A stretch of DNA of 64,000 bases from a virus (Duplodnaviria; Caudoviricetes). Of the stretch, positions 38,598 to 58,701 are shown one piece after another. The position numbers and the translations under genes were made by a program. The stretch lies in IMG/VR virus record IMGVR_UViG_3300012979_000032, positions 28,915 through 92,914 of that record. One strand, 5' to 3'. The stretch's first letter is position 1. The number at the start of each line of letters is the position of its first letter. A model generated the notes under the pieces. It worked only from the letters and a program-made list of their open reading frames with translations. It was not told the origin of the DNA and made no database searches.

Positions 38598-38640
38598 TGT
38601 GGATAAAGTTATCCACAATGTTATCCACAGGCGGGGATAA
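38598..38640. promoter_or_regulatory. DnaA box cluster
   Basis: TGTGGATAA 38598, TTATCCACA 38609, TTATCCACA 38621, degenerate CGGGGATAA 38632. Confidence 0.8.
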
Positions 38641-38747
38641 AAAATAATAAAAAAAATTATAAAAAAACCCTTGACAAGACAGCCAATGTGTGGTACTATG
38701 TAATCACAGAGAGGGCAAGAGCTCTCCAAGAGAAAGGAAGTACGACT

Positions 38748-39068
38748 ATGATGACCATCAACTCTCTCACCCTTAGCTATCACGCAGGCGTTGAACGCGC
38801 AGACAGAGTAGCCTTCATTGATGAACGCATTGGTTGGGGACAGATCATTAAGGAAGTGTATTATCATGGATGCTATCATTGTATCACTGATACTGGTGTT
38901 GCTCTGGTGGTAGATAACAACAGACAGACCATCATCACCCTGTATCTGGTGGATGCTATGGAATTACAGCGCACCTTCAACAACAACACCCCCAAGTACC
39001 TGCTGAAAAAGGTTAAGCATTACACCCAGCTGGGATGGGTCAATCATTACTCCCTGCGCCACTCCTGA
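38748..39068 (+). CDS. Hypothetical early protein (106 aa)
   Basis: Promoter 38671, GAAAGGAAG RBS; YH...R..R motif reminiscent of RelE-like folds (weak). Confidence 0.75.
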   Translation: MMTINSLTLSYHAGVERADRVAFIDERIGWGQIIKEVYYHGCYHCITDTGVALVVDNNRQTIITLYLVDAMELQRTFNNNTPKYLLKKVKHYTQLGWVNHYSLRHS

Positions 39069-39195
39069 AAGGGTGGCGCTTCCGGTAAAAAATAAAAAAA
39101 TTTTTCTAAGAAAAAGCTTGACAAGTATCTCAATGTGTGGTATTATTTAATCACGGTAAGGGAAGAACCTGCCGGGGATAAAGGAGGAAACAACA

Positions 39196-39375
39196 ATGAC
39201 TAAGATCATGGAACGCGCCCTTGATGTAGTAGTTCGCGCACGCGGCTTCGAAGATAACCAGACTATCCTGTTCGCACACCTTCTGGAGAGTGGCACTATC
39301 CAAGAGAGCGAAGCCATGGAGCTTGCGCAGAGGGTGGCAAACCTGCCCTTCATGGAAGACGATGACGAAGAATAA
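39196..39375 (+). CDS. Small acidic-tailed protein (59 aa), below ORF-track cutoff
   Basis: Promoter 39118, AAGGAGG RBS, MTKIMERALDVV...MEDDDEE. Confidence 0.8.
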   Translation: MTKIMERALDVVVRARGFEDNQTILFAHLLESGTIQESEAMELAQRVANLPFMEDDDEE

Positions 39376-39485
39376 ATAAAAAAAACTTGCGGAAAACGCT
39401 TGACAAGAATCACCGAGTATGCTATAATAAGTACAGTTGATGAGGGAACATCAACGACACGAGATAGAGAAAGAGGTAATGAGCA

Positions 39486-39740
39486 ATGATGAACATTAAG
39501 GAAGCGCAGAACAAGGTTAACGAGTACATCACCAAGAATGTTGACGGCATCATCGCAACCATCGAAGCATCCATCATCGAATCTGCGGAGCAGGGCAAGA
39601 CTCGCATCGACTACTCCTTCGAGCGCAACACCAACCAGAACATGGAAATCCAGAAGCGCGTGATGCAGGTGCTCGCGAATGCTGGCTATCGTCTGCGCAC
39701 TATGAACAATGGTGCTCTGGAAATCTGCTGGGCTGCTTAA
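39486..39740 (+). CDS. Hypothetical early protein
   Basis: Own promoter and RBS. Confidence 0.8.
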   Translation: MMNIKEAQNKVNEYITKNVDGIIATIEASIIESAEQGKTRIDYSFERNTNQNMEIQKRVMQVLANAGYRLRTMNNGALEICWAA

Positions 39741-39844
39741 AAAAAAGTTTGTCAAGGGGTGAAAAACCCCTTGACAACCATCCCGAAATGTGCTATACTA
39801 ATAATGTCGAAAGGCAATGAACATAAAGAAAGAGGTAACATACA

Positions 39845-40210
39845 ATGAAGCACAACATCACCGAGCTCTACACCATCCAGGGACAGCGTGGCATCTACTC
39901 TGAGGACTACCTTGACAAGCACTTCGTGCGCGTGGCTGCTAAGTACAGCGTCATCCGTGAAGGTGAAGCCTATCCTCTGTCCTATCGCACCAACAATGGT
40001 ACGCTGAACGTGCACACTGCTGATGGTGTGAAGGTAGTATACACTATTGGCGAGAAGACTTGGTATGACACAGAAGCAGAGCGTCAGCAGGCTCGCGAAG
40101 ACATGGCACAGTATCGTGCACAGCAAGCACATCGTCGTGAGCTGATGGCCAAGCTGGACAAGCTGAGCACTGCAAACCTTGAGAAGCTGGTAGCTAAGCT
40201 GGGCCTGTAA
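39845..40210 (+). CDS. Hypothetical early protein
   Basis: Own promoter and RBS. Confidence 0.8.
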   Translation: MKHNITELYTIQGQRGIYSEDYLDKHFVRVAAKYSVIREGEAYPLSYRTNNGTLNVHTADGVKVVYTIGEKTWYDTEAERQQAREDMAQYRAQQAHRRELMAKLDKLSTANLEKLVAKLGL

Positions 40211-40361
40211 GGGCTCAGCTTCTGCATACCTATGCATAATAATACAACTGTCTCGCTGGCGCGCCTACGGTCCTGGCGCGCCATATTTGCCTTGTACGGA
40301 ACCCTACACAAAAAAGTGTTACAAACATTTAACAAATTAACAGAAACTAAACATCCCGAAA

Positions 40362-40694
40362 CCAAAAGAAACAGCCCTCGCTGTGTGCGGCTTGACCATC
40401 TCGCCTACCCAATCTAACCAGAGAGGGATGGGACTTGAACCCATGGCTCACACAGAGGGCTGTTCAGTGGGCAGGGCATTCACCCTCATCAGAGTCCGCT
40501 TGCGCTTCGCAGTAGTTATGCGCTACCACTTGTAAGACTCACCCAAATGCCCTTGCCTTATGCCTCTCGTCTTCACTTGCGTGGATGGAATTTCACCATC
40601 GACCATCGGCAAGGACTGTATGCGTCTTTGGTATCCAAGTTCTCACTGAGTGTCGACCCTCAGGCTTGGTAGCGATTCCGCATCCCCTCGCTGT
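40362..40694 (-). ncRNA. Putative ~330 nt structured non-coding RNA with tRNA-like T-arm
   Basis: Promoter TTGACA(40729-40724)-17-TATTAT; no RBS-led ORF; nested helices; AUGGG-UUCAAGU-CCCAU; closing stem plus U-run. Confidence 0.7.
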
Positions 40695-40850
40695 GATTAT
40701 ATAATAGCACACCCTTCGCGTTTTGTCAACACTTTTTAGAAAGAAAATAAAAAAAAGTTTTTTAGAAAAAAGGGTTGACATTCTGGGCAAAGTATGTTAT
40801 TATTATCATGTCAGGAGGGGAAAGCCTCCAAGAGAAAGGAAGTAAGAACA

Positions 40851-41048
40851 ATGAAGAAGAATCTGACCAACGCCGAACTGATCGCCATCCTGTCCAAGCG
40901 TGACCCGAATGCCCCTGTTGACATTCTTGTCGACTGGTGTGTGTGGAATAGCGAACTGGCCTACCCCGAAGTAGATGAAAAATCTGGCGTCTGCTACTCC
41001 ACCGAAAATGATCAGCTGGTAGTTTCTGCTGGAGAATTTGAGTGTTGA
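40851..41048 (+). CDS. Hypothetical early protein (65 aa)
   Basis: Promoter 40775, RBS; stop TGA lies inside the next TTGACA. Confidence 0.8.
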   Translation: MKKNLTNAELIAILSKRDPNAPVDILVDWCVWNSELAYPEVDEKSGVCYSTENDQLVVSAGEFEC

Positions 41049-41105
41049 CAAATTCTCCAACCTATGGTATAATAAGTACAACGAAAGACGAAAGGAACTG
41101 ATCCC

Positions 41106-41576
41106 ATGAACGCTGAAATCATCAAGGCTATGAACCGCAAGAACGAGAAGCACCCCATCCGCGACTGGTGGCACAAGAACGACTACAAGGTCATGCGAGT
41201 TGTCCTGTTCCCCATCTGGGGCTGTGTGTGGGCTCATGACAAGATCAAGAGCAAGTTGAACGCGCAGGTCGTATGGAGCAATGAGCGAGTGAATGAAATT
41301 CTTTCCTACTATGTGCCGCGCAAGTGCTCTTGGAATGAAGAAGATCAGGAGCTTTACTTCTTCGACAATGGCTACGGCTGGTCGATGTGCTACGCAAAGA
41401 AGCATTTGAAATTTAAGGATCGCCGCTTCTGGAATAAGTTCAGGGGCTGGACTGGTGGCAAAATTCGCGAGTACCTGCTGAACACTTTCGAGCTGGAAGG
41501 ATTCACCAAAGAGCTGGGCAACTGCGGCGACGGCTGGACTGAAATTTATTTCAAGAAAGTTGAGGAAAGGGCTTGA
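41106..41576 (+). CDS. Hypothetical early protein (Trp-rich)
   Basis: Own promoter and RBS. Confidence 0.8.
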   Translation: MNAEIIKAMNRKNEKHPIRDWWHKNDYKVMRVVLFPIWGCVWAHDKIKSKLNAQVVWSNERVNEILSYYVPRKCSWNEEDQELYFFDNGYGWSMCYAKKHLKFKDRRFWNKFRGWTGGKIREYLLNTFELEGFTKELGNCGDGWTEIYFKKVEERA

Positions 41577-41646
41577 CAAAAGCCCTAACCTCTGATATAA
41601 TAAGTACATCAAGAGGGCAAGAACCTCAAAGAAAGGAAATGATAAA

Positions 41647-41850
41647 ATGGAATTCTTGGGCTGTCTGGGTATCATCGCACTCTTCATCGCTGTGTGGGGT
41701 CTGGAGACTTGGGTCATCATGGCTCTGTGGAACTGGCTGGCTGTATCCCTGTTTGGCGCACCTGAGATCACCTTCTGGATGACTGCTGGCCTGATGCTCC
41801 TGATCAACCTGCTGACTGGTGGAATCAAGATCACCACCAAGCACAACTGA
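41647..41850 (+). CDS. Small membrane protein
   Basis: Two hydrophobic helices, RBS. Confidence 0.8.
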   Translation: MEFLGCLGIIALFIAVWGLETWVIMALWNWLAVSLFGAPEITFWMTAGLMLLINLLTGGIKITTKHN

Positions 41851-41870
41851 CAAAGAAAGGAAATGATACT

Positions 41871-42071
41871 ATGAATACTGAAAAGACTACTGCTCAGAAA
41901 CTCGGCGAACTGATTGGCTACCTGCTGGTGATTTTCCTCTGCCCCTGGTTTGTAATGAAGGGGTGGGAAGCCATCGCCTGGGAGTTCAACCTGCCGCAGT
42001 TTGGCTATTGGGCTTGCTTCTTCATCTCGCATGGCTTTCGCTATCTGACTGCCAACATTCGCAACAAGTGA
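41871..42071 (+). CDS. Small membrane protein, likely related to the preceding gene
   Basis: Hydrophobic; similar W..M..W......F..P....W spacing. Confidence 0.8.
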   Translation: MNTEKTTAQKLGELIGYLLVIFLCPWFVMKGWEAIAWEFNLPQFGYWACFFISHGFRYLTANIRNK

Positions 42072-42206
42072 GCCATCGCGCCCCACAAAAAGGGGGCGCA
42101 TTTTTTTTTATTTTTTTTCTAAAAACCTATTGACATTTTGACCCGTGTCTGCTATAATTAAACCATCGAAAGGGACAAGAGCCCTAGAAGAAAGGAAGTA
42201 GCAACA

Positions 42207-42308
42207 ATGTTCGATTCTTACATCTGCGAGATCACCTGCGAGGAACTCTACTCCGAGGATACTGAAGCTCTCTGGGCCGAGATCATGGTCGAAGAGGAAG
42301 AGGCGTAA
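42207..42308 (+). CDS. 33 aa highly acidic peptide
   Basis: Promoter 42129, GAAAGGAAG RBS, MFDSYICEITCEELYSEDTEALWAEIMVEEEEA, terminator follows. Confidence 0.75.
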   Translation: MFDSYICEITCEELYSEDTEALWAEIMVEEEEA

Positions 42309-42455
42309 GCCTCTTCTTTCTTTTTATCCGGCGGCTCGTCGGCGGGCGCTCTGCTTGCCTACGAGCCGTGTTTCCGTAAGGCTGGCCCTTGCATAATTAT
42401 TGCGCGAAATGTATAAACATTCATGCTGTCCCGAAACGCCCAAAAAGGTGGTGGA

Positions 42456-42659
42456 TTACTCCACCACCTCACCGAGCTCTTCAACCCTGACCACCGGCCG
42501 GCCGTTGCGCTTTTCGTGGGTCATCCACCAGTAGGGGGTGTTCACGAGACGCTCTTCCTCAGCCTTGTCGGCGTTGATCGTGTAGGCGAGAACCTCATCG
42601 CCGCAGGGATAACCTTCGCAAGCAGTGACCTTAGCAACCTTAACCGCGTAAACCTTCAT
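42456..42659 (-). CDS. Hypothetical early protein (inverted cassette)
   Basis: Minus promoter near 42709-42737, GAGGAGG RBS. Confidence 0.8.
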   Translation of the reverse strand: MKVYAVKVAKVTACEGYPCGDEVLAYTINADKAEEERLVNTPYWWMTHEKRNGRPVVRVEELGEVVE

Positions 42660-42771
42660 GTGTGTTTCCTCCTCTTTCAGCTGGGCTCTTGTCCCTTGCT
42701 GTGATTATATAATAACACAGCTTTACCGGTTTGTCAATACTTTTTTGAAAAAAAATTCGCTGATTTTTCAA

Positions 42772-42984
42772 TCAGCGATTGTAGTTGTAAGAGGGAAACT
42801 TGGCCTTCTGGCGGCGCTTCTTCTCAAGATGATCATCATGAGCGAGAGCCACACCCATCAACACCAGACCCACAAACATGGTGACTTTGGTCAGAGTGGT
42901 AAACAGTAAGATGGTGGCAATCATGCCATAGAAGCAGAGGACGAAGCCGATGCAAGCGATGATGGTGTCGAAAGTGCTATTCAT
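42772..42984 (-). CDS. Small membrane protein (inverted cassette)
   Basis: Minus promoter near 43018-43046, AGGGGG RBS, two TM helices and a basic tail. Confidence 0.75.
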   Translation of the reverse strand: MNSTFDTIIACIGFVLCFYGMIATILLFTTLTKVTMFVGLVLMGVALAHDDHLEKKRRQKAKFPSYNYNR

Positions 42985-43159
42985 TGAGAAATTCCCCCTT
43001 GTTTTGATTACATGCTTATTATACACCCTCTTAATACTTTTGTCAATACTTTATTACGACAAAATTAAATAATAATCGTGACAAAAATAAGTGCTTGACA
43101 ACATAGAAAAAATTTGTTATAATAAATACGAACCAAGAGAAAAGAAAGGAATTGATCCC

Positions 43160-43633
43160 ATGAATCTGCTTACGACTTTTATTCTGCTCAACATCGCCAA
43201 TGTTATCATTCAGACTGTGAAAAGCATTGCCACAATCAAATGCGGCAAGACTGCGGCGGCTGTGGTCAATGCTGTGGCCTATGGTCTTTACACAATTGTC
43301 ACTGTGTACATGCTCTGCGAATTGCCCTTGATGTGGAAAGCTGGCATTGTTGCAGGCTGTAATCTGGTGGGTGTCTGGCTTGTCAAGTACTTTGAGGAAA
43401 AGGCAAGAAAAGACAAGCTCTGGAAGGTTGAGGCAACCTTCAAAAAGAGCGACAAATGGGAGCTTGCTCTGTTTCAGCTGAAAGAGTATGGAATCCCTGT
43501 TAATTACATTGATGTGGAAAAGTACATCATTGTCAATTGCTACTGCGCCACCAAAGACCTGAGTGAACAGACCAAGCACATTCTGGAAAGAACTGGCGCA
43601 AAATACTTTGTAACTGAATCAAAAAATCTTTGA
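43160..43633 (+). CDS. UPF0316/DUF5698-like membrane protein
   Basis: Three TM segments (NVIIQTVKSI..IK.GK..AA) followed by a soluble domain. Confidence 0.6.
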   Translation: MNLLTTFILLNIANVIIQTVKSIATIKCGKTAAAVVNAVAYGLYTIVTVYMLCELPLMWKAGIVAGCNLVGVWLVKYFEEKARKDKLWKVEATFKKSDKWELALFQLKEYGIPVNYIDVEKYIIVNCYCATKDLSEQTKHILERTGAKYFVTESKNL

Positions 43634-43703
43634 AAAAGGGGGTTGACAAACCCCACAACCTATGCTATAATAAAGACACTCCAAGAGAAAAGGAAATGAT
43701 AAG

Positions 43704-43931
43704 ATGATTAAGATTAACTCTGATGGCTACAATCGCTCTGTTCCCCTGAACTCTCTGTGTGTGGGCGATACCTTCCTGATTGAGGGAAGTGTGTGCATGA
43801 TCGCCAAGCGCAATGGTCACCCCTTTGTGCTTGACCTGAGCACTGGCAAGGACTACTGCTCCATCAACCCCTGCAACAGCCCCCAGCGAGTTACCCCCAT
43901 TGAGTGCGAACTTTCTTACAGAATTAAGTAA
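43704..43931 (+). CDS. Hypothetical early protein
   Basis: Own promoter and RBS. Confidence 0.75.
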   Translation: MIKINSDGYNRSVPLNSLCVGDTFLIEGSVCMIAKRNGHPFVLDLSTGKDYCSINPCNSPQRVTPIECELSYRIK

Positions 43932-44000
43932 AAAAGGGGTTGACAAACCCCTAACCCTGTGATATAATAAGACCATCGAAAGACGAAAGGAATTGATACT

Positions 44001-44198
44001 ATGGCTAAGTACATTGTGAATGTTGTTATGAGCACCTGTGTGGAAATCGAAGTCGAAGCGCATGATGAGGATGAAGCGAAGACTATCGCCATCGAAGAAG
44101 CAGATCCCTACATGGCTGATGATTGGGATTATGGCATCGACTGTGTATTCAGAGATGATGATGACGAAGATGAGGAAGAAGAAGAGGAGGACTGGTGA
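44001..44198 (+). CDS. Very acidic small protein (65 aa)
   Basis: EIEVEAHDEDEA..IA motif; DDDDEDEEEEEEDW tail. Confidence 0.8.
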   Translation: MAKYIVNVVMSTCVEIEVEAHDEDEAKTIAIEEADPYMADDWDYGIDCVFRDDDDEDEEEEEEDW

Positions 44199-44332
44199 CC
44201 CCAATGGGGTCACCCCCGGGCCGAAAAAAACTTTGAAAAAAGTTTCAAAAACCTATTGACAAACCAGCCACACCATGCTATAATAAGTACATCAACAGGG
44301 CAAGAGCCCAAGACAAGAAAGGGATTGATACT

Positions 44333-44716
44333 ATGAAGACTATCACCAAGATCACCATGACTCGCATCTCCAACACTCGCGCCCTGATTGACCAGCTCCC
44401 TGTGGTATTCACTCGCAAAGAATATGATGCTCTGCGACAGGCGCAGATCGACCAGCTGATGAAGGAAGCTCCCTATCGAAGCTGGCGCAACAAGATCTGT
44501 CGCGAAGATTCTGCCTTCACTCTGGCGAACCTGCGCGAAGAAGGTTTCCTGATTGTGGTGCGCTCTGAGCCTGTGACCATTGAGGTTGAGGAATGGAACT
44601 ACATGGCGCGAACCTATGAAAAGAAGCCCCTTGAGGTTGAGCGCCATTACTATCGCTTCAGCGAAGAAATCGAAGATTTTTTCGCAAAAACTCTTGACAA
44701 CTGGGAGCAAATGTGA
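44333..44716 (+). CDS. Hypothetical protein, possible winged helix
   Basis: Own promoter and RBS; C-terminus runs through the next promoter. Confidence 0.75.
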   Translation: MKTITKITMTRISNTRALIDQLPVVFTRKEYDALRQAQIDQLMKEAPYRSWRNKICREDSAFTLANLREEGFLIVVRSEPVTIEVEEWNYMARTYEKKPLEVERHYYRFSEEIEDFFAKTLDNWEQM

Positions 44717-44754
44717 TACAATAAAGACACTCCAAGAGGAAAGGAATTGATACT

Positions 44755-45057
44755 ATGACTAAGATGACCCTGATTACCATGACCACTATTTCCCCTGAAA
44801 CCACCTTCACCAATGCGGATTTCGCTGTTGGCTTCGGCCATGCGCTGGCCGCCTTGCCTGTGGGAGTGCCCATGACAGCGAAGCAGATTTGTGACGCTGT
44901 CTGCCCTGAGTTTACAGTTCAGAAGACCACTGCCTATCTCAAAATGGCTGTGATTCATGGAATCATGAAGCGTGAAGAGGTCGAGTTGGACAAGACTTGG
45001 GAAGACTACTATGGCAAGCGCCATGTGTGGGTACAGGCTCTTTACACCAGAGTGTAA
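44755..45057 (+). CDS. Winged-helix-like protein
   Basis: PMTAKQIC...TVQKTTAYLK...GIMKREEV pattern. Confidence 0.7.
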   Translation: MTKMTLITMTTISPETTFTNADFAVGFGHALAALPVGVPMTAKQICDAVCPEFTVQKTTAYLKMAVIHGIMKREEVELDKTWEDYYGKRHVWVQALYTRV

Positions 45058-45183
45058 AGGGCTTGGCCGGAAAAAATTTTTTTCAAAAAAGTTTGAAAAA
45101 GGTATTGACAAACTAAGTAGCCCATGCTATAATAAGTACATCAAATGAGCCAAGTGCTCTGAATAAAGAAAGGGATTGATACT

Positions 45184-45630
45184 ATGAAATGCGCTATTGA
45201 ACTGCTGGCTATGAACTCTGAGGCTCTGGACTATAAGGCTCGCGCCCATGAGCGCGCTGTTGCTCGCTCCATTCAGTATTGCGAAGATGTAATTGCCCCT
45301 CTGATGGAAAAGCTTGCCAAAGCTGGTGATCTCCCTGTAAATCGCCCCTATGGACGCTGGGGTAGTGAGACCACCTTGACTTTCCAGTGCTACGACAGAG
45401 TCGATGATGGAGACATTTCCCCCCTGCGCTTTGATGGCACTACCTATGCCAATGGAGAAAAAAGCTACACTTGGGGCGATGTCTGGTATGACAAGCAGAC
45501 CATCATTGACTATTGTGCAAAGTTCTGTATTGAGGTCACTTTTGACACTCACTGGTTTAAGCGCTATGGGTCTGGTGATCAGAAGGGTGTGAAAATGCTC
45601 TTGCAGGTGAAGCCTGCCTGCATGGACTAA
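45184..45630 (+). CDS. Hypothetical early protein
   Basis: Own promoter and RBS. Confidence 0.8.
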   Translation: MKCAIELLAMNSEALDYKARAHERAVARSIQYCEDVIAPLMEKLAKAGDLPVNRPYGRWGSETTLTFQCYDRVDDGDISPLRFDGTTYANGEKSYTWGDVWYDKQTIIDYCAKFCIEVTFDTHWFKRYGSGDQKGVKMLLQVKPACMD

Positions 45631-45772
45631 GGTTCTAAGGGGCTGGGCAACCAGCCCCAAATCCGCCCGGGTAAAAAAAATTTTCAAAAAGGTATTGACA
45701 AACAGACCAACGTGTGCTACAATAAGACTGTAAAAAGGAACAGGGCAAGTCCCTGAGAAAGAGGTAGATACC

Positions 45773-46255
45773 ATGACTAAAAGCAATTTCTTCCGCTACT
45801 ACAACCGCCTGAGCGGCGCTGATCGTTACTTCCTTGTGTTCCCCTTCAAGAAGAACATGTATGTGGCTGACCTGCGGCATCTCTGCTCAACCTGGTGCTT
45901 TGAGACTCGCGAAAGTGATCAGAATGGCGGCTGGCAGAAATGGATGCTCCAGCCTGGCAAGCTCCCCAAGGCTCGGCTGGCTAAAAAGGCTGTGTACCTG
46001 ATGACTCAGAAAGAATTTGAGGAACAGCGCAAGGCTTCCAAGATGAATCGCGGCTACTTCTGCGAAACGCTTCTCTGTGAAAAGCTCGGCTGTGTCCCTG
46101 CTTCCTCTGATCGGACGGCTCGCTTTGATCGCTGTGGCGATGTGGTTTACAATGGTCTGCAGTATCAAGTCAAGTATCAGAACGCAACTCTCACCAATGT
46201 CAACACCCTCCACCATGCGCAAGCAGACGCAAGGGCGGCAAAGAAGAAGGCGTGA
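45773..46255 (+). CDS. PD-(D/E)xK-like nuclease-fold protein, paralog of 49582..50055
   Basis: NRGYFCE...RFD..GDVVYNGLQYQVK. Confidence 0.6.
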   Translation: MTKSNFFRYYNRLSGADRYFLVFPFKKNMYVADLRHLCSTWCFETRESDQNGGWQKWMLQPGKLPKARLAKKAVYLMTQKEFEEQRKASKMNRGYFCETLLCEKLGCVPASSDRTARFDRCGDVVYNGLQYQVKYQNATLTNVNTLHHAQADARAAKKKA

Positions 46256-46367
46256 GCCTTCTTTTTTTTCTAAAAAAAATTTCAAAAACCTATTGACATT
46301 CCAGCACGGTTCTGCTATAATTAAACCATCGAAAGGGGATAACCCCTAAAACAAGGAGGACACCACA

Positions 46368-46625: not shown

Positions 46626-46788
46626 GCGCCCATTCTTTTTTATTTGGCCGCGCGTGCTTGGGCCTCACGCGCGGAATTTGCGCCAAGAGAAAGCCTACAG
46701 AAAATTTATTTGGAAAAAGTTGAAAAAAGGGGTTGACAAAATGATCCCGATAGTGTATAATTAAACCATCGAAAGGAAAGAGGTGGCT

Positions 46789-47085: not shown

Positions 47086-47142
47086 CAAACCCTCTAAGGT
47101 ATGCTATAATAAAGACAATCCAAGAGGAAAGGAAACGATACT

Positions 47143-50255: not shown

Positions 50256-50355
50256 TTCAAAAAAATCCTAAAAACCCCTTGACACCCTGCCCCACCTGTG
50301 CTATAATAAGCTTGTTGATGAGGCAAGAGCCTCCAAGAGAAAGGGTTGATAAGAT

Positions 50356-51021
50356 ATGATGAAGGAAATGCGAATGACTATTGATACTGAGACTGTGGGC
50401 GGCTGTTCTACGCCAGATGGCGCATACCACTATGGCGCAACTGTCCACAATCTGGATGGCGACATCACTGCTGTTGCCAATATCCTTGTGATGGAACATT
50501 TCGACAAGATTCGCAATGATGACTACGCAAAGAAGAATTTTCACCTGTATCAGGAAATGATTGCCTCTGGCACTGTGACCTGTGTCGCAACTGAGGTCGA
50601 GGCTGTGGAAGTCCTGCGCCAGCTGGCAAGGATGTATAATGTGAAGTACATTCAGGCTTACAATTCTGGCTTTGATTTTGTCAAGACTGAGTGCTCTGCT
50701 CTGCTGGATGAATTTCAGTTTATTGACCTGTATCTGATGGCACTCCAGACCATCACCCACCAGAAGAAGTATGCAAAGTTCTGCAATGAGCATGGACTGT
50801 ATTCCAAGAGTGGCAAAACCTGCGCAACCTCTGTTGAAGCTGTGTATGCTTTCATCACCAACAATCCCCATTTTGAGGAAGAGCACACTGCCTTTGAGGA
50901 TGCTTTGGTCGAGACTGCGATTTTTGTCCATCTGCGCAAGATGCACAAGAAGTATACCAAGAACATGCACCAGTATGATTGCAAGGTGGGCAAGTGCTTC
51001 CCCAAGCGAGAGACCCTGTAA
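50356..51021 (+). CDS. DEDDh 3'-5' exonuclease (DnaQ-like)
   Basis: ExoI IDTETVG, ExoII AYNSGFD, ExoIII HTAFEDA. Confidence 0.9.
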   Translation: MMKEMRMTIDTETVGGCSTPDGAYHYGATVHNLDGDITAVANILVMEHFDKIRNDDYAKKNFHLYQEMIASGTVTCVATEVEAVEVLRQLARMYNVKYIQAYNSGFDFVKTECSALLDEFQFIDLYLMALQTITHQKKYAKFCNEHGLYSKSGKTCATSVEAVYAFITNNPHFEEEHTAFEDALVETAIFVHLRKMHKKYTKNMHQYDCKVGKCFPKRETL

Positions 51022-51106
51022 GGTCTCCGCACGGGGCGCGAAAAAAAAGTTGAAAAAACTTTTGAAAAGTGCTTGACATTCTGACCAAGGTATGATACTA
51101 TAATCA

Positions 51107-51178
51107 TGTCAGGAGGGCAAGGGCCAAGAAACCCAGCAGGCGCGCATGCTGAGGAAGTAGAGGAAGAAAACTTCTGAA
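51107..51178 (+). ncRNA. Putative short RNA from an ORF-less promoter
   Basis: TTGACA 51073 / TACTAT 51096; ~70 nt without a credible RBS-led ORF before the next promoter. Confidence 0.5.
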
Positions 51179-51278
51179 AAAAAAGTTTCCCAAACCCCTT
51201 GACAAATCAAACAGGGTATGCTATAATAAGTACATCAAGTGAAGGAAAACACTTAAACACCAGAAAGGAATTGATACT

Positions 51279-51629
51279 ATGGAAAAGATGACTAATGTGA
51301 AGGCTCTCTCTTACATCCTGACCAACTGCGAACTGCCTGAGGATGTGAAGTCCAAGGTCGAAGCCATGAAGGCTTCCTATGAGAAGAAGGCTTCTGCTGA
51401 GCGCAAGCCTACCCCCACCCAGACTGAGAATGCTGGCTTCAAGGCTGAGATTCTGGCTGTGCTGGCTGATGGCGAACAGCGCACCATCACTGATCTGATG
51501 AAGGCTGTCCCCTCTCTCTCTGATCTGTCCAACCAGCGAGTGTCTGCGATTGTTCGCCAGATGACTCTCTCTGGCGAAGTGGTTCGCATCGAAGATAAGC
51601 GCAAGGCTTACTTCAAGGTGGCTGAGTAA
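51279..51629 (+). CDS. Winged-helix DNA-binding protein, paralog 1 of 3
   Basis: ERKPTPTQ..N...K..IL..L..G...TITDLMK...LSNQRVSAIVRQ...SGEVVR.EDKRKAYF. Confidence 0.85.
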   Translation: MEKMTNVKALSYILTNCELPEDVKSKVEAMKASYEKKASAERKPTPTQTENAGFKAEILAVLADGEQRTITDLMKAVPSLSDLSNQRVSAIVRQMTLSGEVVRIEDKRKAYFKVAE

Positions 51630-51747
51630 GGGCGCAAGCCCTTACCCCCCTTGTGGGGGCTCGGCCCGGGCGCAAAAAAAAATTTGCGAAAAGTATTGAC
51701 AACTGACCCAAGGCATGCTATAATAATACTCGAAAGGGGGAAGGGAA

Positions 51748-52113
51748 ATGACTGAACAGGTACAGAAACTGATGAAGACCCTGAGTATCAGCGAACAGGA
51801 AGCCATGGAAATCCTTAATGCTGACAAGGAAATCGACAGGGGCGCAAAACTGTTTAGCCTTGACAAAGAAGCCGAAAAGGAATCCAAGAAGGCTCGACAG
51901 GGCGACAGGAAAAAGCCTATGGTCTGTAAGTTTGATTCAAGCAAAAAGACCAAGCCTGCCAATGAGTCTAAGTCCAACATTGTTTCCAATGTGGTTTCGA
52001 CTCTGGAACAGATGGGCGCAACTGAAATCAATCTCACCAACCCTGAAAGAGAATTCACTTTCAAAATGGGCGATGTGAAATACAAGTTTGTTCTGTCTGT
52101 CCCTCGCAGTTAA
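51748..52113 (+). CDS. Hypothetical protein (NPERE motif), paralog of 56504..56977
   Basis: Shared LDKEA, K.NE.K and NPERE..FK motifs. Confidence 0.8.
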   Translation: MTEQVQKLMKTLSISEQEAMEILNADKEIDRGAKLFSLDKEAEKESKKARQGDRKKPMVCKFDSSKKTKPANESKSNIVSNVVSTLEQMGATEINLTNPEREFTFKMGDVKYKFVLSVPRS

Positions 52114-52212
52114 GGGGGCGCAAGCCCCCTAAACTTTTTTCCAGAAAAGTATTGACAAGTCGCCACGGCTATGCTATAATATAATCAATCCAAGAGGAAA
52201 GGAACTGATACT

Positions 52213-52410
52213 ATGAGAGACCCCAAGCGAATCTACACCACAAGCAACGCAATCGCCACCATTTGGGCTGACCTGCCAGATTGGCGATTCGGACAGCTGA
52301 TGTACAATTTCAAGACCCACATGGACAAGCAGGGCATTGACATTTTCTACCTCGAAGAGGACAAGTTCGTCGAGTGCCTGCGCGAGTATGTCGACCAGTT
52401 CAAGCTTTGA
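52213..52410 (+). CDS. Small phage protein (MRDPxRI...PDWRFGQL type)
   Basis: Own promoter and RBS; motif common in phage hypothetical proteins. Confidence 0.8.
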   Translation: MRDPKRIYTTSNAIATIWADLPDWRFGQLMYNFKTHMDKQGIDIFYLEEDKFVECLREYVDQFKL

Positions 52411-52533
52411 GCTGGTCGCCGCCGGCCGTGGCGACCAGTTTTTCGCTTTAATACCGGGCCGCCAAAAAATTCGTTGAAAATTTGTGCACTTTTACCACTT
52501 GCTTTTTATCCCAATACCTGCTATAATAAACAA

Positions 52534-52845
52534 TGTCAGGAGGCACTGAGGTGATGCTGAGTGAAGCTGGTCGACAAAACTTCTTCAAAAAAAGTTTTGA
52601 AAAACCCTTGACAAAGCCGCCAAGATGTGATACAATGACAATGTCAAGAGGGCAAGGGTTAGTAAACCTCCTAAGTGATGGGTGCTTTGCCCCAAGGAAA
52701 TTTCCTTGAAAAAAGTTTAAAAAACCTCTTGACAAGTAGCGCAGGATGTGCTACAATAAGGATGTCAAAGGGCGAGGGAAGCCCAAAGGTTAAGGTCTGG
52801 CTGCCAAGACTGAAAGGGTTCAAATCCCACAGAGGACGCTCTGAA
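52534..52845 (+). ncRNA. Three consecutive ORF-less promoter units giving short RNAs, the third tRNA-like
   Basis: Promoters at 52499, 52608, 52729; hairpins; GGG-TTCAAAT-CCC at 52816-52828. Confidence 0.6.
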
Positions 52846-52944
52846 AAAAAAGTTTCCCAAACCCCTTGACAAACTCCCCAAGGTGTGATACAATAAGGAC
52901 ATAAAGAGAAGCCACCTCTTAAAAAGCAGAAAGGGATTGATACT

Positions 52945-53298
52945 ATGACTAAGATGACTAACATTAAGGCTCTGGAGTATGTTCTGACCAACTGCGCTGA
53001 CCTGCCCTCTGAGGTCACTGACAAGCTGACTGCCATGAAGTCCAGCTTCGAGAAGAAGTCCTCTGCTGAGCGCAAGCCCACTCCTACCCAGCAGGAGAAC
53101 ATGGGTCACAAGCAGGAGATTCTGAACCTGCTGGCTGATGGCAACCAGTACACCATTACTGACATCATGAAGGGTGTTCCTGCCCTGTCTGACCTGTCCA
53201 ACCAGCGAGTGAGCGCCATTGTGCGCCAGCTGACCCTGTCTGGTGAGGTTGTGCGAGTTGAGGATAAGCGCAAGGCTTACTTCAAGCTGGCTGACTGA
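52945..53298 (+). CDS. Winged-helix DNA-binding protein, paralog 2 of 3
   Basis: Highly similar to 51279 and 55802. Confidence 0.85.
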   Translation: MTKMTNIKALEYVLTNCADLPSEVTDKLTAMKSSFEKKSSAERKPTPTQQENMGHKQEILNLLADGNQYTITDIMKGVPALSDLSNQRVSAIVRQLTLSGEVVRVEDKRKAYFKLAD

Positions 53299-53440
53299 TT
53301 CCCCAAGGGGAAGGGGCAACCCTTCCCCAGCCCCTCGGGCAAAAAAAAAGTTTCAAAAAAGGGTTGACAAATAACCCAAACTGTGGTACTATAATCATGT
53401 CGAAAGGGCAAGCCCCTCTAAAAAGAAAGGAATTGATACT

Positions 53441-53782
53441 ATGATGAACTCTTACCTCGAATCCGCCAAGAACCTGAACGACCTGACCAATCGCATGGGT
53501 GTCCTGACCAAGCTGTGCGCTCTGACCCCTGGTGCTGAGTTTTACGCTTCTGACCTGGGTCTGTCTGGGCAGACCATGAACTCCCTGAGCATGCATGGTG
53601 TTGTCACCTATGTGAGGGGCAAGGAAAAGGTCGAATTCATCCCTGCTGACCACTATGGCGAACTGTACAGGAAGGTTGAGGTCAACTGCTGGACTGTCGC
53701 TGACAAGTTCCTGACTGACCACTTCCGCAGCTACTGTGGCAGCATGGCGGCTCTGTACTCTGCGCAGATGCTGGCTCTGTAA
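53441..53782 (+). CDS. Hypothetical protein, possible winged helix
   Basis: EFYASDLGLSGQTMNSLSMHGVV. Confidence 0.75.
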   Translation: MMNSYLESAKNLNDLTNRMGVLTKLCALTPGAEFYASDLGLSGQTMNSLSMHGVVTYVRGKEKVEFIPADHYGELYRKVEVNCWTVADKFLTDHFRSYCGSMAALYSAQMLAL

Positions 53783-53895
53783 GAGGGGGACTCCCCCTCT
53801 TTCGCCCGAGCGAAAAAAAGTTTTAAAAACCCCTTGACAAGTTGCCCACCCTCTGCTATAATATAATCAATCCAAGAGCGAAAGGAACTGATTCT

Positions 53896-54102
53896 ATGGA
53901 AACTGTAATGATCAAGCGCACTCAGACCTGCCCCAAGTGTGGCAAGTCCCACTCTGTAATGGTCCCCTTCTCTGAGTACTGGGCATGGGAATGCGGCGCG
54001 CCCATGGAACAGGCTCTGAAGTCTCTGACCTACTGCGAACTGAAGCAGATCGCCACCAAGGTTTGCCCTGATTGCCAAAAAGAAATTTTAGGTTATCAGT
54101 AA
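53896..54102 (+). CDS. Zn-finger protein, paralog of 54787..55077
   Basis: CPKCG...AWECG...CPDCQ. Confidence 0.8.
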   Translation: METVMIKRTQTCPKCGKSHSVMVPFSEYWAWECGAPMEQALKSLTYCELKQIATKVCPDCQKEILGYQ

Positions 54103-54170
54103 AAAACCCCTTGACAACCTGAGTCCCCTATGCTATAATAAGTACATCAAGAGCGAAAGGAAATGATCTG

Positions 54171-54428
54171 ATGAATTACAATGTGATCGCCCACTATGAA
54201 GATGCTACCATTACCTGCGAGACCAATGACATCCATGTTGCCCTGACCTTCCTGCTGGAGCATGGCGACACTCAGATCGAAGTGATTGATGGCTTCACTG
54301 GTGAGATCCTGTGTGCGCAGAACTGCGAAGATCCCATTCTCCAGGATGCCTTTGGGCTGACCCTGCTGGGCTTCCTGATGGAGCAGGCATGGGGTGCTGT
54401 CCTCGAATCGCTGGGCGAGGGGGACTAA
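54171..54428 (+). CDS. Acidic hypothetical protein
   Basis: Own promoter and RBS; VIDGFTGEIL. Confidence 0.8.
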   Translation: MNYNVIAHYEDATITCETNDIHVALTFLLEHGDTQIEVIDGFTGEILCAQNCEDPILQDAFGLTLLGFLMEQAWGAVLESLGEGD

Positions 54429-54527
54429 CCCCCTTTTTCGCCCGGGCGCGAAAAAATTTCAAAAAGGGTATTGACAAATCATTCAAGAGGGTGTATAATA
54501 GTCTTACAAACGAAGGAGGCGACCCCC

Positions 54528-54731
54528 ATGCGAGACCTGATTCTGAAAGCCCTTGCCCAGTATCCCAATGGCCTGCGCCAGCGCATGATTGCTAGTGAGG
54601 TTGGCTGTTGGACTGCGAACCCTGAACTGCGTCAAACCCTTGACGCTCTGACCAATGAGGGCGTTCTGTCTAGGCGCTACCACAGCGACCCTGCCAACAT
54701 GGAATATTATTTTATTTGGAAAATCGCTTGA
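54528..54731 (+). CDS. Small winged-helix protein
   Basis: ILKALAQYPNGLRQRMIASEVG...LDALTNEGVL. Confidence 0.75.
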   Translation: MRDLILKALAQYPNGLRQRMIASEVGCWTANPELRQTLDALTNEGVLSRRYHSDPANMEYYFIWKIA

Positions 54732-54786
54732 CAAGCGACCCAAGGTGTGCTATAATAAGACCATCAAGAGGAAAGGAACTGATACT

Positions 54787-55077
54787 ATGAAGTTTGATTT
54801 TGAAGTTACTGTGATCTGCCCCTTCTGCGGCGAAGTTTCCACTGTTGCTGTGGTCAAGAAGGACTATGATGCATGGCAGTGGGGCGAGCTGATTCAGAAT
54901 GTCATGCCCTATCTGTCTCCCAGCGATCGAGAGATTCTGATCAGTGGCATGTGCCTGAAGTGCCAGTCCTCTTTCTTCTCCTGCTGTGAGGAAGAGGATG
55001 AGGACTTCGAGCCTGATGACATTGACGACGACTGCGGCTTCGACCCCTATGAGGGTTGCTTCACTTACGACTGCTGA
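54787..55077 (+). CDS. Zn-finger protein with acidic tail
   Basis: CPFCG...AWQWG...REILISGMCLKCQ; DCGFDPYEGCFTYDC tail. Confidence 0.8.
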   Translation: MKFDFEVTVICPFCGEVSTVAVVKKDYDAWQWGELIQNVMPYLSPSDREILISGMCLKCQSSFFSCCEEEDEDFEPDDIDDDCGFDPYEGCFTYDC

Positions 55078-55090
55078 GGAGGAATGTAAA

Positions 55091-55330
55091 ATGGAAATGA
55101 CTCAGAAACTGGCCAATGACCTGATGGACTGCCTGTGCGCTCTCGCTATCTCTGCTAATGGGCGCATGCCTGAGACTGATGAAGAGTTTGAGCAGTGTCA
55201 GCAGTATGCGAAGGACACCTTCATGACGCTCTGCGACCAGTGGGAGCAGGTCACTGGGGAGACTTGGGAAGTCATCCCCAGCGAGGACATTGATGATGGT
55301 GTCGAGCGCATCACACAATTTTTGAACTGA
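55091..55330 (+). CDS. Acidic hypothetical protein
   Basis: GAGGAGG RBS; terminator hairpin follows. Confidence 0.8.
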   Translation: MEMTQKLANDLMDCLCALAISANGRMPETDEEFEQCQQYAKDTFMTLCDQWEQVTGETWEVIPSEDIDDGVERITQFLN

Positions 55331-55511
55331 GATGGCAACATCTCAGTTCCTTTATCTTTTGGGCCGGGCGCCCACGGTCGAGGTGCCCGGTTTTTCCGCG
55401 TATCCTTCCATTATAACATTTTTCCGAGCAAAAGTCAATAGGCAAATTGAACAAATTTTTTCCCGAAATTTTGTGCTTGACATTTGGGTCAGGGTGTGGT
55501 ACTATGATCAT

Positions 55512-55700
55512 GTCAGGAGGGCAAGCCACTCTCCAAGGGCTTGAAAAAAACTTTGAAAAAGTTTCAAAAACCTCTTGACAAGTAGCACAGAGTGTGCTAC
55601 AATAAGGGTGTCAAAGGGAAAGAAACCAAGTCGCTTAGCCAAGGTAGCCTGAGGATGGGTGCGCAACATCCATGGTTAGACCCTGAGCAAGCGAAGCGAA
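55512..55700 (+). ncRNA. Two ORF-less promoter units giving short hairpin RNAs
   Basis: Promoters 55477 and 55575; CAAGCC/GGCTTG, TCGCTT/AAGCGA and GGATG/CATCC stems. Confidence 0.55.
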
Positions 55701-55801
55701 AAAAAAGTTTCAAAAACCCTTGACAAACAACTGAATAGGTGCTATAATAACAATGTCAACAGGGGAAGGAAAACCCCACAAACCAGAAAGGGATTGATAC
55801 T

Positions 55802-56155
55802 ATGACTAAGATGACTAATGTGAAGGCTATCGACTTTGTTCTGACCAACTGCTCCAACCTGCCTGAGGATGTTGTCGCCAAGCTGAATGCGATGAAGGCT
55901 TCCTTTGAGAAGAAGTCCAGCGCTGAGCGCAAGCCCACCCCCACTCAGGTGGAGAATCAGGGCCACAAGGAAGCCATCATGGCTGCCCTCGCCACTGGTG
56001 AGAAGATGACCATCACTGACCTGATGAAGGCTGTGCCTGAACTGGGCGAACTCTCCAATCAGAGGGTGAGCGCCATTGTGCGACAGCTGACCCTGAGTGG
56101 CGAAGTGGTTCGCACTGAGGATAAGCGCAAGGCTTATTTCTCCCTCGCTGAGTGA
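55802..56155 (+). CDS. Winged-helix DNA-binding protein, paralog 3 of 3
   Basis: Highly similar to 51279 and 52945. Confidence 0.85.
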   Translation: MTKMTNVKAIDFVLTNCSNLPEDVVAKLNAMKASFEKKSSAERKPTPTQVENQGHKEAIMAALATGEKMTITDLMKAVPELGELSNQRVSAIVRQLTLSGEVVRTEDKRKAYFSLAE

Positions 56156-56268
56156 GGGAGAGAGGGGGAGTAACCCTCCCCCTCCCCTCGGCCCGGGCCG
56201 AAAAAAAGTGCTTGACAAGTCGCGCAGGGTGTGGTATAATGAGGACACAAACCAAAGGAGGATGACCC

Positions 56269-56472
56269 ATGAACCTGATGGAAAAACTGGAAAACTACAT
56301 TCACATGCAGACTAACTACGCCCAGCGCATGCCTGAACATCGCGCGACCTTCGAAGCCCATGTTTTCGGCGCAATCGAAATGGTTGCTTTCCTTGACCCT
56401 GAGAAGCAGGACATCCTTGAAAAAAAGTGGTATGATTTCAAAAAAACCCTTGACAACCTGCTCGAAGTGTGA
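56269..56472 (+). CDS. Hypothetical early protein
   Basis: AAGGAGG RBS; C-terminus runs through the next promoter. Confidence 0.8.
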   Translation: MNLMEKLENYIHMQTNYAQRMPEHRATFEAHVFGAIEMVAFLDPEKQDILEKKWYDFKKTLDNLLEV

Positions 56473-56503
56473 TACAATAAGGATGTTGAAAGGAGCTGAT
56501 CCC

Positions 56504-56977
56504 ATGTTTGAGAACTTACAGGAAGCCATTAAGCACTATGCCAAGTGCATGAAGTGTACCCCCAGCGAAGCCAAGGCAGATGCTGAGCGCGAAATCGCCC
56601 TGATGATGGAAAAGGAAGGTTATTCGCGCGAATTTGCGGAAGCCACATGGATGGAAGAACAGGAAGAACTGAATTGCGCTGAACTGGACAAGCTGGACAA
56701 GGAAGCTAAGAAGAATGGTGCGACCAAGGTTGTCGCCCAGTCTGAGGACAAGCCCAAGCAGAAGCGCGCACCTCGCAAGCCCAATGAAGAAAAGCGCGCC
56801 CTAATTGATGCCCTGATGAGTGCGCTTGAAGATTTTCATCATGGCGATGAAGAGGAAATCGCTTCCCATGTTGAAGCTGTGGCGATTGTCAACCCTGAGC
56901 GCGAAATCAGTTTCAAGGTTTACGACCATGAATATTCCCTGACCCTGACCCAGCACAGGAAGAAGAAGGGGGAGTAA
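56504..56977 (+). CDS. Hypothetical protein (NPERE motif), paralog of 51748..52113
   Basis: AAGGAG RBS; shared motifs. Confidence 0.8.
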   Translation: MFENLQEAIKHYAKCMKCTPSEAKADAEREIALMMEKEGYSREFAEATWMEEQEELNCAELDKLDKEAKKNGATKVVAQSEDKPKQKRAPRKPNEEKRALIDALMSALEDFHHGDEEEIASHVEAVAIVNPEREISFKVYDHEYSLTLTQHRKKKGE

Positions 56978-57093
56978 TCCCCCTTCCCCCTACCCACGGG
57001 CGCAGAAAAAAAATTTCAAAAACCCCTTGACAACTGGCGCAAGGTGGTGTATAATAAGCACATAACCAAGGGAAACAGAAAGGAATTGATACT

Positions 57094-57699
57094 ATGAACT
57101 CTCTCTTTTTTAAGCGCGAACTTGACCTGATTGTGGATGAAGACCTGCGAATGGCTGTGAAGTGCTATTTCGATGAAAAGGTTCCCAAGTATTTTTGGGA
57201 AATCGGCGCTTCCTCTACTGGAAAGTTTCACCCCATGTTTTCACAGGGTGAGGGTGGTCTGGTTCGCCACACCAAGGCTGTGGTGATGTTCGCTGAAGAA
57301 CTCCTGCGCATGTCCTCTTACGCCTACATGCCTGATGCTTACAAGGATTATGTGATTGCGGCTTGCCTGATTCATGATTGCGCCAAGTATGGCATGAGCG
57401 ATGAACTGGACAAGGGCGCATACAAGGAACATGCTCCCAATGGCGCAAAGATGTTCGACCTGTTCATGCTGGAATCCTATGGAGTCCATGCCCCTGAAAA
57501 GCTCCTTGATGCTGTGCGCACCCACATGGGGCAGTGGTCTGAGAGGGAAGACAAGCCCTTCTCCCCCATTGATCGCTGTGTTCACATGGCTGACTACATG
57601 GCTTCGCGCTCCTTCCTTGACATCCCTTCCATTTGGGATGAATGGGAAATCGCTGATGCTGAAATCAAGCAGGCCAAGGCGCACCCCTTTGAATTTTAA
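57094..57699 (+). CDS. HD-domain phosphohydrolase
   Basis: GGLVRHT...LIHDCAK...H...HMG...HMADY. Confidence 0.9.
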   Translation: MNSLFFKRELDLIVDEDLRMAVKCYFDEKVPKYFWEIGASSTGKFHPMFSQGEGGLVRHTKAVVMFAEELLRMSSYAYMPDAYKDYVIAACLIHDCAKYGMSDELDKGAYKEHAPNGAKMFDLFMLESYGVHAPEKLLDAVRTHMGQWSEREDKPFSPIDRCVHMADYMASRSFLDIPSIWDEWEIADAEIKQAKAHPFEF

Positions 57700-57795
57700 G
57701 GGGGCGCGCCCTGCGCCCGGTCAAAAAAAGTTTCAAAAAACCCTTGACAATCAAGCCAAGATTTGCTATAATAACAATGTAAGGAGGGCAAGCAA

Positions 57796-57957
57796 ATGGC
57801 TAAGAAGCAGGAAAACCCCAATTTCAAGAAGTCCTACAACAAGATGACCCCTGAGGAGCTCGCCATGTGGCTTCACGCCAATCGCAAGGCGCATGCTTTC
57901 TCTTCCAAGAAGGATTTCAAGCGCAACCCCAAGCACAGGGGGAAAGAGGACTTTTGA
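57796..57957 (+). CDS. 53 aa basic peptide
   Basis: Promoter 57743, AAGGAGG RBS, MAKKQENPNFKKSY...KKDFKRNPKHRGKEDF; terminator overlaps the stop. Confidence 0.75.
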   Translation: MAKKQENPNFKKSYNKMTPEELAMWLHANRKAHAFSSKKDFKRNPKHRGKEDF

Positions 57958-58701
57958 GTCCTCTTTTTATTCGTCGGCGCCTTCCCGGGCGTGCGGCGCC
58001 GTTTTCGCGCATAGTCCCCCTCTTCAGTATATCATAAATAAATTCAAATGTCAAGCATTTTTTTTACAAAATCCCGAAATTTTTATTAAATTTTGCTTAA
58101 AAATTGTTAAATTTGTGTGAAAAATGTTAAATTTTTATTAAATTTTCGTCATTTTTTCGTAAAATTTGTAACATTTTCGTAACATTTTGGGGTCAGGGGG
58201 CCCCAAAGCCCACAAAAAAGTGCCATATGCGCCCATTTTTCGTTGAAAGCGGGCCGCGCCCGGGCGCGCGGAGCCGACCTCCAGGACGCCGGGACCATTC
58301 GAAACAAAAGTTGAGGATGGGCGCGCGCGAAATCGAATCAATTTTTTCCCGAAAAGAAAAAAAATCTACCCGGGGCGCGTCTCGCGCCCCTCAAGGCCGG
58401 GAACAGGCATTATATGCGACCCGATCTAGTTTGAAAGCTGGCGTTTGACAAAATAAAAAAAATATGATATAATATAATCGTAAGATAAGGAAGAAAAAAT
58501 TTCTTCCCGCCACTAGAACATATCGAATGAGAGTGATCCAAAAGCCACTGTACGATCCAAAAGAAGAGAGAGCTGAAACTTTCCTCGTGAAAAATTTTGG
58601 CAGGCTTTGCGTGCCCAATTTTAATCTCTGAGATATTTCTTGACAAAAATAAAAAAATATGGTATAATATATATACAATGAAGAAAGGAAGTATATGTCC
58701 A

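Follow-up and report, generated by a model that had tools for sequence, protein, structure and literature searches.

A window of 64,000 nucleotides (bases 28915-92914) was analysed from the 92.9-kb IMG/VR viral contig IMGVR_UViG_3300012979_000032, which is classed as linear and 52% complete by CheckV. We report that some 20 kb of this window is occupied by an array of 50 promoter units of one design, most of which lead a single small gene (Table 1; positions are those of the window). A core scan for TTGACA-17-TATAAT, allowing at most one mismatch over the 12 core positions, returned 44 plus-strand sites between 38001 and 58800, compared with 0.07 sites (maximum 1) in dinucleotide shuffles and approximately one per 5-10 kb over the remaining 72 kb of the contig. 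With a position weight matrix (PWM) built from these sites we recovered 50 promoter units between 38671 and 58640, 47 on the plus strand and three on the minus strand, at a density of ~2.5 per kb, while the same matrix found no unit outside the array within the window. The array is real and highly non-random. An earlier reading made from the sequence alone (the sequence-only reading) had described about 50 stereotyped promoter-gene cassettes at 38640-57960; the cassettes are confirmed, but the right end lies at ~58.7 kb and not at 57.96 kb.

The spacer is 17 bp in all 50 units and the TG of an extended -10 is present in 46. With up to two mismatches allowed, the UP motif AAAAAGTTTCAAAAA was found 23 times in the array, compared with an expectation of 1.2 for the whole window, in agreement with the UP element, TTGACAA and TG-n-TATAAT first assigned to each unit. 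Its two A-tracts lie about one helical turn apart, and the A-tracts of UP-element subsites are likewise separated by about one turn. Further downstream, the leader GAAAGGAAYTGATACT stands directly 5' of ATG (up to three mismatches) 20 times, seven of them exact, against 1.7 expected, and leaders of this type are joined to 21 unrelated genes. The stereotyped leader had been ascribed to nearly every gene; its exact form is limited to about half of the units. Leaders are ~14-51 nt long, assuming that transcription starts 7 nt past the -10, and are of two types, a short one of 26 nt and one of 40-45 nt with a 5' hairpin.

A Shine-Dalgarno (SD) sequence and an open reading frame (ORF) of 33-221 aa follow 43 of the 50 units, the other seven being ORF-less. 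The proposal that nearly every small gene has its own unit holds for these 43, except that a few units are two-gene operons (41647 with 41871, and 54787 with 55091). Inverted units had also been noted, and there are indeed three on the minus strand (promoters at 40729, 42737 and 43046) as well as counter-oriented minus-strand promoters at 55438 and 58054. The preceding ORF stops within the next promoter in nine units: the stop is the TGA of the -35 TTGACA at 41045 (41045..41050, plus strand), 41573, 47082, 47508 and 54728, and falls inside the TG-extended -10 at 44694, 48497 and 56450. Since the upstream ORF ends in the next promoter, the UP element doubles as coding sequence there, and such proteins have UP-encoded C-termini, for example EENEKGA and MEKKEG immediately before the stop.

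The payload genes are mostly unfamiliar. No PHROG family was assigned to 31 of the 40 payload proteins scanned, Pfam names only two (those at 47827 and 57094), and only 17 of the 43 payloads have a homologue anywhere in a set of 114 related stretches, the proteins in relatives being 30-66% identical to those of the window. The payloads that can be named, nucleotide-metabolism enzymes and small membrane proteins, are of kinds usual in early regions. One Enterococcus phage homologue of the 221-aa protein is annotated as an exodeoxyribonuclease. The duplicated payloads noted earlier are found again in a 117-aa winged-helix-like protein, present in three copies at 74% identity and each time preceded by one or two ORF-less promoter units, and in two weaker paralogue pairs. 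A sequence search of three payload proteins against solved structures gave no match, nor did a search for the FolD gene in 185,579 genomes for host prediction.

The array also differs from the late module in coding properties. With TAG read as sense, coding coverage on the minus strand of 1-36 kb goes up from 66% to 97% and the longest frame grows from 508 to 4557 aa, while reading TGA or TAA as sense gives no such gain in that region; on this evidence TAG stands for an amino acid in the late genes of this phage. All 43 array ORFs end in TGA (23) or TAA (20) and contain neither an in-frame TAG nor a TAG stop, so that the array can be translated under either code, as would be expected for genes expressed ahead of a code switch. 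Third-codon-position GC (GC3) is 0.62 in the array, uniform across its genes, against 0.27 in the late module, and total GC rises at ~37 kb from 0.34-0.39 to the 0.45-0.50 of the array. Taken as compartments, positions 1-36000 hold minus-strand late genes with GC3 of 0.27 and TAG as sense, and positions 38640-64000 hold plus-strand genes with GC3 of 0.5-0.9 and no TAG. The 195-kb relatives described below are almost without this GC contrast (0.35 vs 0.32). An apparent avoidance of off-frame TAG on the sense strand was discarded as a signal, being explained by codon usage and a general avoidance of T|A codon junctions.

Table 1 Positions of the array, its representative cassettes and neighbouring features in the window
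Feature	Position	Strand	Remarks
Left boundary: three perfect DnaA boxes (TTATCCACA) within 32 bp	38598..38629	.	40 nt before first array promoter
Array of 50 promoter units (47 plus, 3 minus)	38671..58700	+	
Inverted ORF-less unit	40362..40729	-	Consensus promoter at 40729; predicted ~333-nt transcript, 40362-40694
Two inverted protein cassettes	42456..43046	-	Promoter 42737 with 67-aa ORF; promoter 43046 with 70-aa membrane ORF
Representative cassette	44224..44716	+	GC hairpin behind previous stop, then promoter, leader, ORF; UP 44226-44251; -35 44256-44261; TG and -10 44276-44284; 42-nt leader with 5' hairpin and GAAAGGGATTGATACT; ORF 44333-44716, 127 aa
5'(3')-deoxyribonucleotidase-like (NT5C)	47827..48264	+	Backbone payload kept in relatives; Pfam
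Second promoter class, A/T-only spacer	50087..50215	+	Also at 43095, 58445 and 58640
221-aa protein, phrog_20187	50356..51021	+	Backbone payload; DEDD-exonuclease-like motifs, by eye only
Module copy 1	51073..51629	+	ORF-less promoter unit, then promoter and 116-aa winged-helix-like gene
Module copy 2	52608..53298	+	Two stacked ORF-less units (spacing 121 and 137 nt), promoter, 117-aa paralogue
Counter-oriented promoter at 55438	55320..55438	-	Faces bidirectional terminator of preceding operon; predicted GC-hairpin RNA, z = -4.5
Module copy 3	55477..56155	+	Two ORF-less promoter units, then promoter and 117-aa paralogue
HD-domain phosphohydrolase	57094..57699	+	Backbone payload; Pfam
Similar counter-oriented promoter/hairpin unit	57955-58054	-	
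Right boundary: AT-rich zone of GTTAAA/GTAACA repeats	58060..58190	.	

Relatives and cassette turnover

No close relative came from a megablast of the array against 50,697 GenBank phages, which gave no match at all, or from a pattern search with the back-translated 221-aa protein, and the best DNA identity of the window to any fetched locus was ~75%. The exact 19-nt leader followed by ATG is present in more than 114 IMG/VR stretches on contigs of 100-240 kb, and consensus promoters number ~1.4-2.5 per kb in these stretches. Complete genomes of 195-197 kb make up five of the records, each with one contiguous array of 12-17 kb and with promoters rare elsewhere. The GAAAGGAAYTGATACT leader heads 96 of the 690 unique units in relatives, compared with about half of those in this genome.

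The nearest named relatives are phAss-1, of the Caudoviricetes code 15 clade from the human gut, and the Enterococcus phages EF1, EF5, H1 and VRE9, with Bacillus phages also near. The same kind of array is found in phAss-1 and in the cultured phage EF1 (13 promoters in 5 kb of the latter), and phAss-1 also recodes TAG. Proteins of these phages are nonetheless only 27-55% identical to those of the phage studied here, with 47% and 40% for a virion-module protein (phAss-1 group and Enterococcus phages) and 27-29% for the 221-aa array protein, and their genomes are smaller (136-142 kb vs ~180-195 kb for the clade of this phage). The word 'promoter' is absent from the paper describing phAss-1 (PMC10607447), in which a siphovirus morphology was inferred from a very long tape-measure ORF.

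No genome close to this one having been found, an indel test was run on relatives 90-96% identical to each other, taking -60 to +90 of the -35 as the promoter unit. The junction lay inside a promoter unit in 24 of 38 de-duplicated clean indels, against 24% for random positions, and the sequence common to both flanks was typically 5-116 nt, with overlaps of high-scoring segment pairs reaching 116 nt. Individual cases can be followed to the base: in relative L078 two copies of one promoter flank a 126-aa ORF cassette, a single chimeric promoter standing at that place in L068, and the same pattern of two promoters against one chimera is seen between L063 and L028 for a 75-aa ORF. Alignment breakpoints peak at -20 to -1 (3.8-fold) and at +20 to +39 (3.1-fold), that is, at the edges of the core promoter, and are depleted in payloads. 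In 27 of 53 replacements at least one boundary falls in a promoter in both genomes, and in six both boundaries do. Across the whole genomes of two 195-kb relatives there are ~0.38 alignment breaks per kb in the array compared with 0.15 elsewhere. Different lineages have the 43160 cassette on different sides of a conserved block, and copy number varies for several genes.

Related contigs often end inside their own promoter array (L009, L010, L028, L063, L068 and others), and the end repeat of relative G002 is a promoter (11-39 = 194612-194640). These contig ends probably reflect assembly breaks at repeats; short assembly overlaps account for the end repeats of relatives, which fall inside or outside the array.

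Interpretation and alternatives

We consider it likely that the array is the early host-takeover or accessory region of a large siphovirus-like Bacillota phage, assembled from about 50 mostly single-gene cassettes whose regulatory repeats also serve as recombination homology. Each cassette has four parts: an A-tract UP element, a consensus sigma-A promoter of the form TTGACA(A)-17-TGnTATAAT, a short, stereotyped leader that often has a 5' hairpin, and a strong, purine-rich ribosome-binding site (RBS). Unmodified host RNA polymerase could then transcribe each gene strongly and independently right after infection, and these early genes would be translated in the standard code before the phage switches code. 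The regulatory module of ~70-110 nt would at the same time offer homology for unequal or ectopic recombination, as demonstrated in the relatives and presumed to apply here, by which cassettes may be added, deleted, duplicated and replaced in the manner of the promoter-early stem-loop (PeSL) cassettes of T4-type phages. In this genome itself, such a history finds support in the triplicated module and in the occurrence of one leader on 21 unrelated genes.

Several observations weigh against this reading. The term 'early' derives only from promoter type, code neutrality and gene content, and cassette flux was seen only among relatives, which share 30-66% identity with this phage in their payload proteins. 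The backbone order NT5C, exonuclease-like gene, winged helix-turn-helix gene, 51748 and HD is conserved, roughly half of the replacements lack a promoter boundary, and the relatives' genomes have other hyperplastic (variable) zones that lack promoter arrays. Any modular exchange would be expected to place breakpoints at gene boundaries, and conserved promoter blocks are where alignments tend to stop. A concerted-evolution test of the promoters gave equal medians for paralogous and orthologous similarity. Finally, stems bracketing the -35 are found in only ~6-8 of the 50 promoters, and few hairpins have a U-run. The proposal of the sequence-only reading that the array is shufflable, with its repeats as homology, is partly supported, in the relatives, by the excess of indels in promoter units, the base-level examples, the breakpoint peaks and the movement of the 43160 cassette, and is narrowed by the conserved backbone, the off-promoter replacement breakpoints and the other variable zones.

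It may be that the promoters are conserved for expression only and simply mark gene boundaries, gain and loss being the product of illegitimate recombination filtered by selection, with no role for the repeats as substrate. This explanation fits the finding that 14 of the 38 clean indels, and roughly every second replacement breakpoint, lie outside promoter units, as well as the conserved backbone order, the variable zones without promoter arrays and the equal medians of promoter similarity. Yet many indels share 15-116 nt between their flanks, in promoter and leader, and leave one chimeric promoter, which is the signature of a homology-mediated crossover; the ORF-less stacks with their ~120-nt period also vary in copy number, and we regard repeats without a substrate role as unlikely. 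A regulon switched by a putative phage or host DNA-binding protein acting on AAAAAGTTTCAAAAA, GCCCGGGC or the leader, with a shut-off of the T4 RegA/RegB or SPbeta repressor type, appears somewhat less plausible still. AAAAAGTTTCAAAAA goes beyond a generic A-tract in specificity, nine junctions have a GCCCGGGC-type core immediately 5' of the A-tract, and among the payloads of these arrays the most widespread is a multi-copy winged-helix-like gene, but no recurrent palindromic operator was found in the array junctions, the full inverted repeat TTTGAAA-N4-TTTCAAA is confined to a few units, and the phasing of the A-tracts is that of UP subsites.

The array DNA could also be functional in itself, its ~50 promoters acting as a sink for sigma-A holoenzyme or as a transcription motor for genome entry, with the payloads secondary. 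Promoter density and quality are extreme, 47 of the 50 units are co-oriented and several have no ORF; moreover, T7 entry uses host-polymerase transcription from clustered early promoters. However, the payloads are retained in relatives (30-66% identity) and their codon usage is uniform and distinctive, indicating that the payload genes are under selection, and one complete relative has its array inside the assembled record, at 116-132 kb of 197 kb; we hold this explanation to be improbable. The sequence-only reading had likewise suggested that the promoter density could sequester host RNA polymerase or draw DNA into the cell, an idea for or against which the present results do not speak. That the array is an assembly chimera or foreign DNA, with the GC jump from 36% to 48% marking the joint, is scarcely credible; the steps in GC and GC3 at ~37 kb are in its favour. 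Complete relatives, phAss-1 and EF1 carry the same array beside the same kind of late module, high GC3 is common to the genes right of the array, and promoters of the A/T-spacer class are found within the array, on each of its flanks and in the late region too; this distribution, together with the layout shared by relatives, makes a chimeric assembly unlikely.

Our preferred reading, an early cassette region whose repeats also serve in recombination, can be extended to a broader proposal that we put forward only as speculation and hold to be rather doubtful. A clade of large Bacillota phages, including TAG-recoded gut phages and cultured Enterococcus phages, might share an integrase-free system of early-gene cassettes in which one ~100-nt module would be promoter, antisense terminator, translation-initiation signal and crossover site. 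The promoters would additionally drain sigma-A holoenzyme, and in this phage the GC3 of 0.62, against 0.27 in late genes, would imply two translation regimes per infection.

The SPO1 module and the mobile promoter cassettes of T4-type phages, both named in the sequence-only reading, are the right precedents. T4-type phages carry PeSL cassettes in their hyperplastic regions (Arbiol et al. 2010, PMC2839356; Comeau et al. 2014, PMC4122927). Like the array, they combine a strong host-type (sigma-70-like) promoter and AT-rich upstream sequence with a 3' SD and start codon, and occur in ~50 copies per genome before small ORFans; as in the relatives of the array, indels and replacements occur between close relatives with the crossover inside the motif (PMC2839356). 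In contrast, the array belongs to an unrelated phage lineage with a Gram-positive host, forms one contiguous 20-kb block where PeSL regions are scattered, and has an invariant 17-bp spacer, an extended -10 and an UP element. Stem-loops, often of the GGGG..CCCC type, that act as terminator or attenuator are a further part of the PeSL design, as are excised mini-circles; stem-loops in the array are confined to about half of the units, and most have no U-run. The array also has a standardised leader common to half of the genes as well as stacked ORF-less promoter units. Judged by its nearest named relatives, which are phAss-1 and Enterococcus and Bacillus phages, and by the siphovirus morphology given for phAss-1, the array is not T4-like by descent and its likeness to PeSL is one of mechanism.

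SPO1's host-takeover module, so far as the 1998 work is cited in PMC6873191, likewise consists of small early genes in a large Bacillota phage, with promoters and RBSs of highly expressed genes; compared with it, the array has about double the number of promoters, mostly one per gene. In PHROGs no family is shared between the array payloads and a named SPO1 host-takeover protein (gp37-60), and the array is related by descent to neither PeSL nor the SPO1 module. A position in the terminal redundancy is a further mark of the SPO1 module. Morons and integron cassettes resemble it as self-contained accessory genes gained and lost as units, but morons have no shared bounding repeat, and integron cassettes are promoterless and depend on an integrase and on attC sites, whereas the array cassettes carry promoters. 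Within the 20 largest proteins of the array Pfam found no integrase domain; no search for attC sites was made.

The mechanism thus has published precedent and the array opens no new category. Its significance is rather that the promoter-plus-stem-loop cassette principle of T4-type coliphages would also organise the early region of unrelated, widespread gut- and rumen-type Gram-positive phages, including stop-codon-recoded ones. The sequence rule (UP, TTGACAA, 17 bp, TGnTATAAT, purine-rich leader) could be used to find the early standard-code genes of such phages, among which host-takeover and anti-defence functions are expected, and the array supplies ~50 natural candidate strong promoter and RBS parts for Bacillota. 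The cultured Enterococcus phage EF1 and its kin offer an experimental route to promoter timing, cassette excision and the RNA polymerase sink.

Hairpins, ORF-less units and array boundaries

Roughly half of the units have either a GC hairpin past the stop codon or a GGGG..CCCC stem around the -35. The hairpin lies directly past the stop and before the UP element at ~20 junctions, with a U-run in only ~5, and a GGGG..CCCC-type stem brackets the -35 in six of 50 promoters compared with 1.9 in controls. The latter stems look like antisense terminators because the opposite-strand T-run, the complement of the A-tract, comes next. Stop-side hairpins and -35 stems probably attenuate read-through and, with the complementary T-run, terminate antisense transcription.

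We rejected the idea that the ORF-less units are structured small RNAs, as five of these segments fold no better than shuffled sequence (z from +0.2 to -1.5); only one of them has a sequence match in relatives. Given this folding, and given that no terminator lies between any of the five segments and the next promoter, the ORF-less units are better read as stacked promoters or recombination remnants. Stacks with the same ~120-nt period are found in a 197-kb relative and in phAss-1, with varying copy number. A 58-aa frame with a good SD (52533-52709) begins in an ORF-less unit and crosses the next promoter and the next ORF-less unit.

The predicted ~333-nt RNA of the inverted ORF-less unit carries a T-arm-like hairpin, GGGTTCAAGTCCC. 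ARAGORN identified no tRNA or transfer-messenger RNA (tmRNA) in it, no sequence match was found in the fetched relatives, and its resemblance to the Y-RNA-like YrlA in Rfam is weak and below threshold (23 bits vs 69). Searches for tRNA and tmRNA found none, and Rfam gave nothing at the gathering threshold, only weak sub-threshold matches to YrlA, Clostridiales-2 and SIB. From the A/T-spacer promoter at 50087 a 94-nt ORF-less RNA is predicted, with two strong hairpins (-36.5 kcal/mol, z = -6.0).

The three DnaA boxes at the left boundary are the only perfect ones in the window and could represent a replication origin or a DnaA-controlled first promoter; no DnaA-box cluster was found in the relatives' loci. 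Iteron-like GTAACA/GTTAAA clusters similar to the repeats of the right boundary are present at 38488-38580 and at 40311-40362, the latter beside the putative gene for the 333-nt RNA, and a 52-nt block ending in ACTAAACATCCCGA is repeated in these AT-rich clusters at 77% identity. The GCCCGGGC-type palindrome, which has a SmaI-like core, occurs at nine junctions between 44214 and 57722; window-wide it is found 15 times against 8.2, which is not a significant enrichment. In phAss-1 (L123, 2969/3060 and 5173/5263), face-to-face promoter pairs ~90 nt apart flank a GC hairpin.

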